A DNA stretch of 35,759 nt from Cyanobacteria bacterium auto_48_18 (lineage in GTDB: Bacteria > Cyanobacteriota > Vampirovibrionia > Obscuribacterales > Obscuribacteraceae): positions 1 through 35,759 of the forward strand of contig JAVHQC010000003.1 in NCBI GenBank assembly GCA_036170915.1, in the 5' to 3' direction. The translations under genes were made by a program, and so were the position numbers. Shown one piece after another: positions 29,840-32,623 of this stretch. A model generated the notes under the pieces. That model was not told where the DNA came from. It saw nothing but the letters and a program-made list of their open reading frames with translations, and searched no databases. How positions within the stretch are numbered: position 1 is the stretch's first letter; every line of letters begins with the position of its first letter.

Positions 29840-30868
29840 TCAATCTGGATTAAAAGGCATAATTTTTATCAGTGGCGGCGAAGAGTAAGCTGCCATCTGC
29901 GCGGGGCTTATGGGCGGATGTTTAAGACAAGCCGTAAACAACGCGTCTTTGCACCACTTTTTGCGATCAGTATGACACCAGTACGCAGCGATAAAAAGTT
30001 GCAGATATTTTCGACTGACAGAGTGAAATATCCCATGGGCAAATTCTACAATTTGCTCAATTTGATTTTGAATTGTTTCTTCGCTGGCACCATGCAGGTT
30101 TTCTTTCAAGGAACTTTGCGCTGATTCATCAATTCGTACAATTTTCCCATCATCTTTTTGCTTTGCGAAATTCCCGAGTTCAAGCATCGTGAGATTACTA
30201 TAGAACTCGCCAAAAGGCATTGAGAGCTTCTGATACAGCGCATCCACTGAAACAGGGGTTTTAGATAGATGCTCTAGAATGTTTTTTTGCTTTTCCGAGA
30301 GCTCTGAAAGCTCTGAATCTATATGTTGAGCAGAATCGGGCTGTACAAGTTCGTGCTCCCTTTCGATTAAGGTCTGCTCTTCGTAGGCGTGCATGCTAGC
30401 CGGTGTGTTGGCACTCCGCCTGGAAATAATTTTTTTGAAGCGTTGAGCCGAAACGAGTAGTGCCTCCTCTGGCATTTCACTTGCAATCACTATAAGTATT
30501 TTTTTGATGATCGAATCGGCGCAGCTAGGAGTGATCAGGAACATGCGTGAAAGCCTGTGAGCGCTTATAGCTAAACCTTGCTCCATTAGTCTTATAGCCG
30601 CTATCCAGGCTAAAAGTTGAGTTGAATATTCCATCACTGTATCTTTGGTAGTCATGACTATCATTTTGCAAATGTTACATTGAGCCTGTCGACCGTCTGC
30701 GCTCAGAATAAATTGGGCTGATCTGCATTTGCACTTGAAGTGGCCAAGGCTAAGTCTCTTTTGGAAAATTTGTGAGGCTGCTTGTTGATTGTTAGGAGTG
30801 GTGGCGCAAATTATTGATGATGCTGTAGCGACTTTAAAATCATATTCAAAGGTTTTCTGATCTTTCAT
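29840..30868 (-). CDS. IS1595-transposase-like protein lacking a recognisable DDE core, with an internal DprA-type winged helix
   Basis: C46xC48...C64xxC67 Zn ribbon, then TKDTVM..LLAWIAAI..ISAHRLSR..KKI; LSEKQKNILEHLSKTPVSVDAL...LTMLELGNFAKQKDDG; GIFHSVSRKYLQLFIAAY. Confidence 0.6.
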   Translation of the reverse strand: MKDQKTFEYDFKVATASSIICATTPNNQQAASQIFQKRLSLGHFKCKCRSAQFILSADGRQAQCNICKMIVMTTKDTVMEYSTQLLAWIAAIRLMEQGLAISAHRLSRMFLITPSCADSIIKKILIVIASEMPEEALLVSAQRFKKIISRRSANTPASMHAYEEQTLIEREHELVQPDSAQHIDSELSELSEKQKNILEHLSKTPVSVDALYQKLSMPFGEFYSNLTMLELGNFAKQKDDGKIVRIDESAQSSLKENLHGASEETIQNQIEQIVEFAHGIFHSVSRKYLQLFIAAYWCHTDRKKWCKDALFTACLKHPPISPAQMAAYSSPPLIKIMPFNPD

Positions 30869-30952
30869 AACGTTACCCCCGTGTAAATGATCAAACGGAT
30901 TTTGGAGGTAGAAAGTTCAAATTTAGAATATTAAATGCTTGCGGTATGTGTA

Positions 30953-30986
30953 TCGCCAACTGAACCGTGCACGTTTCAGTTGGCGA
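30953..30986. repeat. Near-perfect 34-bp palindrome (REP-like or operator)
   Basis: TCGCCAACTGAA-C-CGTGCACG-T-TTCAGTTGGCGA, with a single mismatched pair. Confidence 0.9.
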
Positions 30987-31051
30987 AAGATTAAAGACAC
31001 CCGGTTCAGTTTGGTAATCGAGTCACAAACGTGCTCATCGCGGCTAGCAAA

Positions 31052-31075
31052 AAGTTAACCGTGCACGCTACAGTT
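31052..31075. repeat. Degenerate second copy of the palindrome core
   Basis: AAGTTAACCGTGCACGCTACAGTT matches 30958-30981 (AACTGAACCGTGCACGTTTCAGTT) at 20 of 24 positions. Confidence 0.8.
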
Positions 31076-31130
31076 TTAAAAACACTCCCCGGTAGACCAC
31101 CGACAATTTGCCAGTGAAACAAAAGCACCA

Positions 31131-31829
31131 CTAGTGGTGCAAGAACATAAAAGCTCCAGCGACAGCCAACACCAACAACATAACTATGCTGGCAATTAAA
31201 ACAGGGCTTAAGCCTGTCTGAGGCCGGGCATCAGTGCTCACTACTTGCTCTGCTCTGTCTGCTTTAGCCGATTTGCGAGCTAATTTCTCTTCAGCTACTT
31301 CTGCTTCGCTAGGCAGCTCGCTGCCTTCATAGGACCGCATGCGTGACATTCCTGTGCCGCCCGCGCCGGCCAGTTCGTCGAGGGTGGAAGGCAAATCAGG
31401 CAAAGCATTGACTAACTGATTGACTCGAATTTTCAATCCTTCTTCCAGATGCGCTGCATCGGCTGGAGAATTACTGCAATCCAACAATGAATAACTGCCA
31501 TGTTGAATTTTTAGCATGGCGAATAGAGCCGGATAGCCAACCATTTCATCATTGAGCAGCCTGGCGCCCTGCACGTTAGTACTTTTAGTAATCAGAAATT
31601 CGCCATCGACTACGCCATCTTCCGACGCCATGCGAGCAATGGCATAGTCAGCTTTTTTGCTTTTAAAAATGGCAAGCAGCACTTCTTTGGTAGAACGATT
31701 CTCCCAAATTTTCCCTGACTCAATAGTAGGCAGATTATTTAGAGACTTTAAAGATGAGTGTTCCGCCGACTCTGTCGCAAACTGATCGGAATCATCGTTT
31801 GCAGATTCATCATTTATAGATTCAGGCAT
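31131..31829 (-). CDS. Hypothetical protein with a C-terminal membrane anchor (possibly DUF4388/PatA-N-like domain); start re-called at ATG 31829
   Basis: GGGAG RBS before MPESINDES; C-terminal TM LIASIVMLLVLAVAGAFMFL; GYPALFAMLKIQHGSYSL resembles DUF4388 (weak). Confidence 0.55.
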   Translation of the reverse strand: MPESINDESANDDSDQFATESAEHSSLKSLNNLPTIESGKIWENRSTKEVLLAIFKSKKADYAIARMASEDGVVDGEFLITKSTNVQGARLLNDEMVGYPALFAMLKIQHGSYSLLDCSNSPADAAHLEEGLKIRVNQLVNALPDLPSTLDELAGAGGTGMSRMRSYEGSELPSEAEVAEEKLARKSAKADRAEQVVSTDARPQTGLSPVLIASIVMLLVLAVAGAFMFLHH

Positions 31830-31849
31830 GGGCTGCTCCCACAAACTAG

Positions 31850-32623
31850 CTAGGTATGTAGTTCCAAAGTCACCGGACAATGATCTGAGCCGTGGACGTT
31901 GTTGAGGATACCAGCATTGACAACGTTCTCGGTCAATTTGCTCGAGGTAAAGAAGTAATCAATGCGCCAACCGACATTGCGCTCCCGCGCCCCTGAGCCC
32001 ATGTGCCACCAACTGTAATTGTGGGGTTCTTTGTTGTACATGCGAAATGTATCGCTGTATCCCGCGGCTACAAGTTTGTCCAGCCATTCTCTTTCGGCGG
32101 GCATGAAACCGGAGACTGTTTCGTTGGCTTTTGGTCGAGCTAAATCGATAGCCATGTGGGCAGTGTTAAAGTCACCACACACGGCCAGCTTTTTCCCTTC
32201 TTTGGTCAGTTGGTCGGCCCACTGGTAAAAGGCGTCGTAAAACTCCATTTTGTAGAGCAAGCGCTCAGGGCTCTGCGCTCCGTTGGGGAAATAGATATTG
32301 GCCATGACAAAATCGCCGAAGTCGGCCACAAGCGTGCGGCCTTCGCAGTCAAAACGCTGCACGCCGAAGCCTTCTCGAATTGATATGGGCTCGTGGCGTG
32401 TATATATTGCCACACCACTATAACCACGCCTTTCGGCATGGGAGAAAAAGCATTTGTAGCCTTTCCGTTCCATAATTTCAGGAGTAAGTTGGTCCGCTGA
32501 AATTTTGGTTTCTTGCAAACCGACAATGTCTGGTTGCAGACCTTCCATCCAGTCGTAAAGGCCTTTTTTAGCGGCGGCACGAATACCGTTTATGTTCCAA
32601 GAAACCAGTTTTAGTTTTGACAA
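31850..32623 (-). CDS. xth: Exodeoxyribonuclease III / AP endonuclease
   Basis: LVSWNINGIRA, GLQETK, GYSGVA, EGRTL, NIYFPNG, CGDFNTAH, YSWW, GWRIDYF, GSDHCPV. Confidence 0.97.
   Translation of the reverse strand: MSKLKLVSWNINGIRAAAKKGLYDWMEGLQPDIVGLQETKISADQLTPEIMERKGYKCFFSHAERRGYSGVAIYTRHEPISIREGFGVQRFDCEGRTLVADFGDFVMANIYFPNGAQSPERLLYKMEFYDAFYQWADQLTKEGKKLAVCGDFNTAHMAIDLARPKANETVSGFMPAEREWLDKLVAAGYSDTFRMYNKEPHNYSWWHMGSGARERNVGWRIDYFFTSSKLTENVVNAGILNNVHGSDHCPVTLELHT

Follow-up and report, generated by a model that had tools for sequence, protein, structure and literature searches.

In eukaryotes, the domestication of transposases into DNA-binding proteins of the host is a prominent theme; there, the FHY3/FAR1, THAP and BED proteins kept the DNA-binding domain, lost catalysis and expanded into paralogues. 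To our knowledge, few bacterial cases have been described. Here we report on a gene in a window of 35,759 nucleotides (the whole stretch of DNA that was analysed, positions 1 to 35,759 of contig JAVHQC010000003.1) of Cyanobacteria bacterium auto_48_18 (assembly GCA_036170915.1), a member of the Obscuribacteraceae. The gene encodes one of ten paralogous proteins derived from transposases of the IS1595 family, in which a winged helix (WH) of the type found in DprA has taken the place of the catalytic core. A preliminary description, made from the letters of the window, had proposed an intact open reading frame (ORF) with this composite architecture; the ORF was borne out, on the minus strand (Table 1). 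A parallel exists in TldR, nuclease-dead repressors derived from TnpB, which are likewise transposon-encoded proteins that lost catalysis and were kept by the host for DNA targeting (bioRxiv 10.1101/2023.11.30.569447). Compared with TldR, the ancestor here was a DDE transposase instead of the RNA-guided TnpB, no guide RNA is known, and the core was physically replaced by a putative protein-docking domain in about 10–20 copies per genome. The FHY3/FAR1, THAP and BED proteins are eukaryotic, whereas the family described here is bacterial; no comparable paralogous expansion in a bacterium was found in the literature searched.

IS1595 (ISXO2-like) DDE transposases (PF12760 and PF12762, NF033547) share with the window protein the N-terminal helices, the zinc ribbon and the helix-turn-helix (HTH), in the same order, and C-terminal helices with a VS.K.LQ.YL motif. 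The relationship was established by profile–profile comparison (hhalign) with eight genuine IS1595 transposases encoded in genomes belonging to the same phylum. Residues 18–133 of the family corresponded to IS1595 positions 16–133 (probability 99.1%, E 8.3e-19), and residues 262–327 corresponded to positions 243–312 of 326 (92.9%, E 3.8e-7). Both matches followed the order found in the transposase. Searches with single sequences gave weak matches: the window protein reached 16.3 bits with the NCBIfam IS1595 model NF033547 (cut-off 75), Zn_ribbon_IS1595 (PF12760) matched 3/17 family members with a best E of 0.0044, and DDE_Tnp_IS1595 matched 2/17. The IS1595-like termini had been recognized in the preliminary description, as had the zinc-ribbon cysteines C46, C48, C64 and C67 and the C-terminal segment GIFHSVSRKYLQLFIAAY, which was located at residues 279–296. 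In an alignment of 17 family sequences all four cysteines were invariant, together with R60, R151, L229, R286 and K287.

Between the two homologous segments the DDE core of the transposase is missing. Residues 134–260 showed no similarity to the IS1595 profile (hhalign E 0.23–0.45), and E137, D139, E140 and D206, which were invariant across the transposase set, had no counterpart in the family. No acidic residue was invariant in the 17-sequence alignment, D209 in the WH being nearly so; the reported absence of the acidic catalytic motifs was thereby confirmed. Residues 134–186 stand where the DDE core was, and similarity to that core was not detected there. The AlphaFold model of the window protein was confident (pLDDT 86.5, pTM 0.73) and contained no RNase H-like sheet, since only two short strands were present between the HTH and the WH. 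With Foldseek, nothing in the PDB matched the full model, or a model of the shell without the WH, at E ≤ 0.001, and searching the PDB sequences with the profile of the family yielded E 0.12 at best. Matches of the full model over 48,161 chains (VIA-align) were confined to the WH. The window protein derives from an IS1595 transposase, is non-catalytic and has a DprA-type WH in place of the DDE core. It differs from IS1595 transposases by the lack of the DDE domain, the acidic triad and the RNase H-like sheet, and the copies of the family further differ in being diverged from each other, in keeping their synteny from species to species and in evolving under purifying selection.

The DprA-type WH in the middle of the protein, also proposed from the letters, was the sole domain found with Pfam (DprA_WH, PF17782; residues 187–238, E 1e-8, 35.5 bits, cut-off 22.9). 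The same domain was detected in 17/17 family members and occurred 11 times in the genome, namely in DprA and in each of the ten paralogues. The WH of the genome's own DprA could be aligned to all 17 members with 30–58% identity (41% over 44 residues for the window WH). In BLASTP with this WH, the window protein was matched at E 4e-7 and other members at E values down to 1e-18. In comparison, Pfam HTH families matched just 1–3 of the 17 members (E ≥ 0.0013). The true DprA was encoded on contig C26 (PF02481, 243 bits). Its Rossmann-like domain, DNA_processg_A (PF02481), was not found in the window protein with Pfam, and the window protein is therefore not a DprA. The WH is internal in the window protein instead of C-terminal as in DprA/Smf, and it is fused to a transposase-derived, presumably DNA-binding shell. 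Among solved structures the WH came closest to RPA32C, a protein-binding winged helix (VIA-align Z 10.0, rmsd 1.1, 59 residues).

According to PMC12012524, the C-terminal WH of DprA recruits the ComM helicase, the WH of Helicobacter pylori DprA shows no binding to double-stranded DNA (dsDNA), and the interface in Vibrio cholerae involves DprA L350, E353 and L354 with ComM L455 and R497 in the Mg-chelatase domain. A ComM gene is present in the genome (TIGR00368, 595 bits, and three Pfam domains). Complexes of ComM (10-row alignment) with residues 183–250 of the window protein (17-row alignment) were predicted with scores of 0.76, 0.76 and 0.77, compared to 0.00 for the best of three controls. 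The contacts agreed between runs at ≥85%, and the partner pLDDT was 80. The mark used for these scores was reached by 116/157 solved complexes and 2/215 mismatched pairs, a calibration that is only roughly valid here because alignments of our own making were used. The modelled contacts joined helix 219–231 (LTMLEL) to ComM residues 464–517 and 203–209. The LTMLEL motif was present in the window protein, with E230 conserved in 88% and L231 in 82% of the family, and judged by this motif alone these residues may be the equivalents of the V. cholerae interface. The L..EL helix was placed on the C-terminal domain of ComM, as PMC12012524 reports for V. cholerae. On the models, the WH may dock on ComM as the WH of DprA does. 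The preliminary description had envisaged a domesticated transposase repurposed as a multi-domain DNA-binding protein. Its domesticated, non-catalytic character was upheld; the WH is probably not an additional DNA-binding domain, given that the WH of DprA reportedly recruits ComM and that the WH was modelled on ComM here.

Ten paralogues were found in the genome (4.94 Mb in 39 contigs, 86% complete), nine of them full-length and one short, with 28–33% identity and all frames open. Among the 120 ORFs flanking them, no transposase, integrase or other mobile-element neighbour and no shared partner was found; the neighbours were unrelated housekeeping genes. All eight other full-length paralogues had syntenic reciprocal-best orthologues with 80–91% identity in the closest sister genome (G006), and synteny extended to 9/9 full-length loci when the window gene was included. 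For these eight pairs dS was 0.37–0.66 (flank medians 0.30–0.55), dN/dS was 0.09–0.20 (flanks 0.03–0.10) and the divergence at four-fold sites was 0.22–0.38 (flanks 0.22–0.31). The N-terminal domain was kept at 88% and the C-terminal one at 86% (structured domains 86–88%), and the linker at 76%. Terminal or inverted repeats framing the window gene were not found. The family is thus a group of about ten host paralogues that have diverged, are fixed in the chromosome, pass on vertically and evolve under purifying selection, and it is not mobile. Paralogue number, insertion sites and dN/dS, which the preliminary description had named as checks, agreed with domestication. The short member (C23:36738-37505, minus strand, 255 amino acids) kept the zinc ribbon, the HTH, the WH and the promoter motif described below, and had neither the KRSxETPA nor the SRKYLQ motif. 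This copy may be degenerate, or it may stand for a third architecture.

The family profile matched 24/24 genomes of the same taxonomic family, with 1–20 matches per genome (7–20 within the genus). Outside this taxonomic family one weak match per genome was obtained, and the four that were checked were all the WH of a true DprA. In an exhaustive public sequence library 651 clusters were matched at E ≤ 1e-30. Among sequencing runs, a single DNA data set, probably the groundwater metagenome of origin, came up as a match, and no RNA data set did. The nearest clusters were labelled 'hypothetical protein' and were commonest in Candidatus Melainabacteria according to the Atlas labels. The distribution of the family is limited to a single taxonomic family of cyanobacterial relatives that are not photosynthetic, labelled Melainabacteria in the Atlas. 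No description of it was found in the literature searched, which did not include subscription journals.

In sister species, seven members of 265–302 amino acids were examined in which the N- and C-terminal parts of the shell were joined directly, without the WH; none of them reached a Pfam cut-off. A model of one such shell was compact (pLDDT 89.0, pTM 0.85). In VIA-align none of the 48,161 chains matched it at Z ≥ 5, the best value being 4.2, on an HTH. The ISCth4 transposase was considered as an analogue of the shell and dismissed, its match not being meaningful (Z 3.0, rmsd 7.3). The missing solved analogue does not show that the shell is a new fold. In a tree rooted on IS1595, from which one near-duplicate of the eight IS1595 rows was omitted, the family formed one clade (99/99). 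The WH-less forms were placed in two clades nested among WH-containing forms, which suggests secondary loss of the WH; the deep nodes were weak (80/63 and 86/83), and long branches met.

A promoter-like site of the type TTGAAC-N17-CGTT, followed by GGAGG and the start codon, preceded 10/10 paralogues (nine exact sites, and a variant at the copy on contig C4). Genome-wide, the exact motif was found 31 times at spacer 17, compared to 5–14 times at each of the spacers 13–16 and 18–21. Nine of the 31 exact sites preceded family genes, and one stood 21 nt upstream of the ComM ORF. With a weight matrix derived from these nine family sites, further sites were detected in the genome before comEC (PF03772 and DUF4131), a RadC-like gene, a UPF0102 gene (yraN), xseA and a gene for an extracytoplasmic function (ECF) sigma factor. 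UPF0102 is YraN, reported in bioRxiv 10.1101/2024.02.06.579203 as a ComM-interacting nuclease of the transformation D-loop. Three of the 13 core transformation genes named in the same source were among the 17 non-family sites (P ~1e-5, a rough figure because the gene number and the site list are our own counts). In sister genomes both boxes were kept, with a varying spacer, before comM (14/14 genomes of the genus), comEC (4/5), yraN (3/3), radC (5/5) and 15/17 family genes, including both orthologues of the window gene. We infer that the motif may be the promoter of an ECF-type sigma factor driving a natural-transformation regulon.

The ECF sigma gene itself (C23:45659-46352; Sigma70_r2 and r4_2, 214 amino acids) carried the motif upstream with a matrix score of 27.1 and was located 8 kb from the short family paralogue. 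Its product is a candidate autoregulated sigma factor for the whole motif-bearing set. A second paralogous family behind a TTGAAC-N17-CGT-type motif was observed, comprising DUF6088/AbiEi_4 antitoxin-like winged HTH proteins of 188–228 amino acids (Table 1).

The window copy was located between the same neighbours in two sister genomes, G006 and G009. Next to the epimerase gene, 11 further species of the genus had other small ORFs, and no member of the family was found at that place. Compared with its G006 orthologue the window gene showed 61% identity, dN 0.29, dS 1.43 and dN/dS 0.20, whereas its neighbours showed 92–100% identity and dS 0.05–0.42. At four-fold sites in identical codons, 39/78 positions differed in the gene and 146/701 in the flanks (Fisher p 9e-8). 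The divergence was concentrated in an island with sharp borders, in which DNA identity to G006 was 50–73%, compared to 90–97% in the flanks. The island spans the upstream spacer and, within the gene, the N-terminal three-quarters with the N-terminal domain, the linker and the WH. Within it the promoter stretch was better kept (77–82%), and the C-terminal shell was kept at 82–90%. At the protein level, comparison of the window protein (P0001) with P0002 gave 53% for the stretch from the N-terminal domain through the linker to the WH, and 83% for the C-terminal shell. The island could stem from allelic replacement by a more distant relative, or from local fast evolution or hypermutation. Gene conversion from a paralogue was considered as a source and is unlikely, because no paralogue is more than 33% identical.

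A foreign or mobile origin had been suggested in the preliminary description from three lines of sequence whose GC content was counted by hand. These counts were exact (36.7%, 36.7% and 61.7%), and the GC content of the whole gene was 42.8%, within the lowest 1.2% of the genome's 1029-nt windows (genome mean 47.9%). The low GC content is real but modest, goes with the divergence island and is not evidence of mobility. The suggested origin was not supported, given the same synteny in both sister species, vertical inheritance and the lack of terminal repeats. Upstream of the gene, a 249-amino-acid ORF (31131-31880, minus strand) without a Pfam family and with a hydrophobic C-terminal tail overlapped the end of an exonuclease III-like gene by 31 nt. 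It was syntenic in G006 and G009 and was not found beside the epimerase gene in the 11 other species of the genus.

The palindromes adjacent to the gene had been put forward as possible sites of action of the protein. The one at 30953-30986 is 34 nt long with 17-nt arms that are 94% complementary; it and its relative at 31052-31075 belong to a genome-wide repeat. This repeat, a dispersed 24-nt palindrome, AACTGAAnCGTGCACGnTTCAGTT, was found at 30 sites in the genome with ≤6 mismatches and at 19 with ≤3, where by our arithmetic far less than one site would be expected by chance. The sites were sometimes paired, 50–95 nt apart, and most of them followed a stop codon at a distance of 11–60 nt, in many cases between convergent genes. 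The copy at 31052 lies 56 nt past the stop codon of the upstream gene. No such palindrome was found near any of the other nine paralogues, and by eye the palindromes upstream of the paralogues differed from locus to locus. The dispersed palindrome looks like a REP-like or bidirectional-terminator hairpin. As a genome-wide repeat with no site near the other nine paralogues, it was rejected as an operator for the family, and the proposed action of the protein on the adjacent palindromes was not supported.

Table 1. Coordinates of the window gene, its domains and associated features. Positions without a contig handle refer to the window.
Feature	Position	Strand	Basis or remark
Whole gene, 342 amino acids and stop (P0001), one of ten IS1595-derived paralogues	29840..30868	-	ORF intact
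Residues 18–133: two leading helices, four-Cys zinc ribbon, HTH; homologue of the IS1595 N-terminus; presumed DNA-binding part	30470..30817	-	hhalign and model secondary structure
Zinc ribbon C46, C48 ... C64, C67, family-invariant	30668..30733	-	family alignment
Residues 134–186: short strand-helix-strand with (K/R)RSxxTPA..H motif (R151 invariant), then acidic low-confidence linker	30311..30469	-	alignment, model
Residues 187–250: DprA-type WH	30119..30310	-	Pfam; genome scan match 30152-30310
Helix 219–231 (...LTMLEL), predicted ComM-docking surface	within the WH, residues 187–250	-	complex model
Residues 262–327: helices with HSVSRKYLQ motif, invariant R286 and K287; homologue of the IS1595 C-terminal end	29888..30085	-	hhalign
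Promoter-like site; exact TTGAAC-N17-CGTT at 30894-30920, its end 25 nt ahead of the ATG	30889..30922	-	motif comparison
Deep-divergence island, ~1 kb (borders approximate)	30100..31120	.	DNA identity to closest sister genome G006
Palindrome sites in the window	30953-30986, 31002-31011, 31052-31075		27 others in the genome, e.g. C29:59005-59028
DUF6088/AbiEi_4-like genes	C15:59451-60098, C22:30502-31146, C35:228258-228941, C25:106052-106615, C22:109264-109896		motif upstream
Two Metal_resist/LTXXQ (Spy/CpxP-like) genes	C33:276666-277196, C20:10524-11408		high-scoring motif copies

The homology to IS1595, the chromosomal fixation of the paralogues and the shared motif are what was shown. We give an even chance to the reading that the window protein is a domesticated transposase that binds DNA, docks ComM and belongs to the transformation regulon. 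The ex-transposase N-terminus would bind DNA, the WH would dock the branch-migration helicase ComM in the manner of the WH of DprA, and an ECF-type sigma factor would switch the family on together with the transformation genes via the motif. Bound to DNA, the protein would then act as an adaptor or modulator by which ComM is brought to DNA or kept there in the course of transformation-type recombination. Several observations weigh against this reading. The window copy was the most divergent member, its WH scoring 35.5–38.9 bits compared to 57.6 for the best paralogue. The complex score is the model's own confidence, and close relatives of a true partner also pass; it therefore shows likeness to the WH of DprA and not binding by the window copy. 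Conservation of the predicted interface did not significantly exceed that of the remaining WH (mean entropy 1.90 vs 2.23, one-sided p 0.07), and the WH fold also resembled DNA-binding MarR/ArsR domains at Z 8–9. All seven WH-less members examined kept the shell and the promoter motif, and the core function of the family therefore cannot depend on ComM docking. With regard to the motif, no such promoter site was found at dprA (best matrix score 6.9). Matrix sites also preceded five DUF6088/AbiEi-like, two Metal_resist/LTXXQ, DUF1800, OEP and HTH_3 genes; with envelope-type and AbiEi-like genes behind the motif, the regulon is therefore broader than transformation, and the presumed sigma regulon would mix envelope-type and DNA-uptake genes. 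AAC (-35) and CGT (-10) boxes at 16–17 nt spacing are the consensus of ECF-type promoters; the motif could be an operator instead of a promoter.

Part of this evidence would fit lineage-specific transcription factors, in which HTH and WH both bind DNA at paralogue-specific targets, the likeness to DprA reflects shared ancestry and the common promoter belongs to a common stress sigma factor. The match of the WH fold to many DNA-binding regulators (TubR Z 9.6, MecI 9.0, MarR-type 8.8), the existence of WH-less members, the motif copies before envelope-stress-type genes and the divergence of the paralogues, as expected for different DNA specificities, are all in its favour. However, the WH was specifically of the DprA type: its 11 matches in the genome were all in DprA or the family, with up to 58% identity, and its best fold match was to RPA32C. 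The ComM complex scored far above the controls, and comM, comEC, yraN and radC carried the same motif. In DprA the WH recruits ComM, and that of H. pylori is reported to be without dsDNA binding (PMC12012524). We therefore regard transcription factors as a credible but doubtful explanation. The proteins might instead act as a decoy or brake, competing with DprA for ComM through the WH and limiting or timing branch migration without targeting sites. In the model the WH uses the same surface as DprA, ten copies would supply a large pool of WH, and the shared motif points to co-expression with comM. A decoy needs no conserved shell, yet the shell was the most conserved part and persists in WH-less members; ten diverged paralogues would also be hard to explain, and we consider a decoy improbable.

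The N-terminus of DDE transposases is the part that binds insertion sequence (IS) ends, and a truncated transposase could inhibit the transposition of IS1595-type elements or their miniature relics, of which the adjacent palindromes would be an example, or could bind their ends, the gene still being part of mobile DNA. The homologous N-terminus, the low GC content and divergence island of the window copy and the palindromic repeat next to it would agree with this. It is largely refuted and very unlikely: the genome (assembly 86% complete) yielded no match to the IS1595 DDE domain, the synteny of nine loci was kept between species, and the palindromes were mostly at the 3' ends of genes, with no inverted repeats framing the gene. 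Finally, the loss of the catalytic core and the fast divergence of the window copy, compared with its neighbours, could be those of a decaying transposase relic without function. With ten of ten frames open, dN/dS of 0.20 here and no higher in the other paralogues, invariant cysteines, R151 and R286-K287, a conserved promoter, 651 clusters in public data and confident models of both architectures, the relic explanation is refuted and has practically no probability left.

The family is an expanded bacterial case of domesticated transposases, with at least 651 sequence clusters that are annotated only as 'hypothetical protein', in which the catalytic core was swapped for the domain by which DprA recruits ComM. 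A conserved shared motif ties it to comEC, comM, yraN and radC and suggests a regulon for natural transformation, with an ECF-type sigma factor as its probable driver. We know of no study of competence in these uncultured, non-photosynthetic cyanobacterial relatives. If the docking on ComM is true, the family members would be the first ComM recruiters besides DprA known to us and would make it possible to ask how branch migration is directed to its target. A more far-reaching and unlikely, though not implausible, extension is that the ten to twenty paralogues per genome form a panel of ex-transposase DNA readers, each with its own sequence preference, that steer the ComM and YraN D-loop machinery to or away from certain sequences, be they in the incoming or in the resident DNA, for example the ends of insertion sequences. 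If so, natural transformation would gain a sequence-specific layer of control from a tamed transposon, and the window copy, with its 1-kb island, would be the member with the fastest turnover of specificity.

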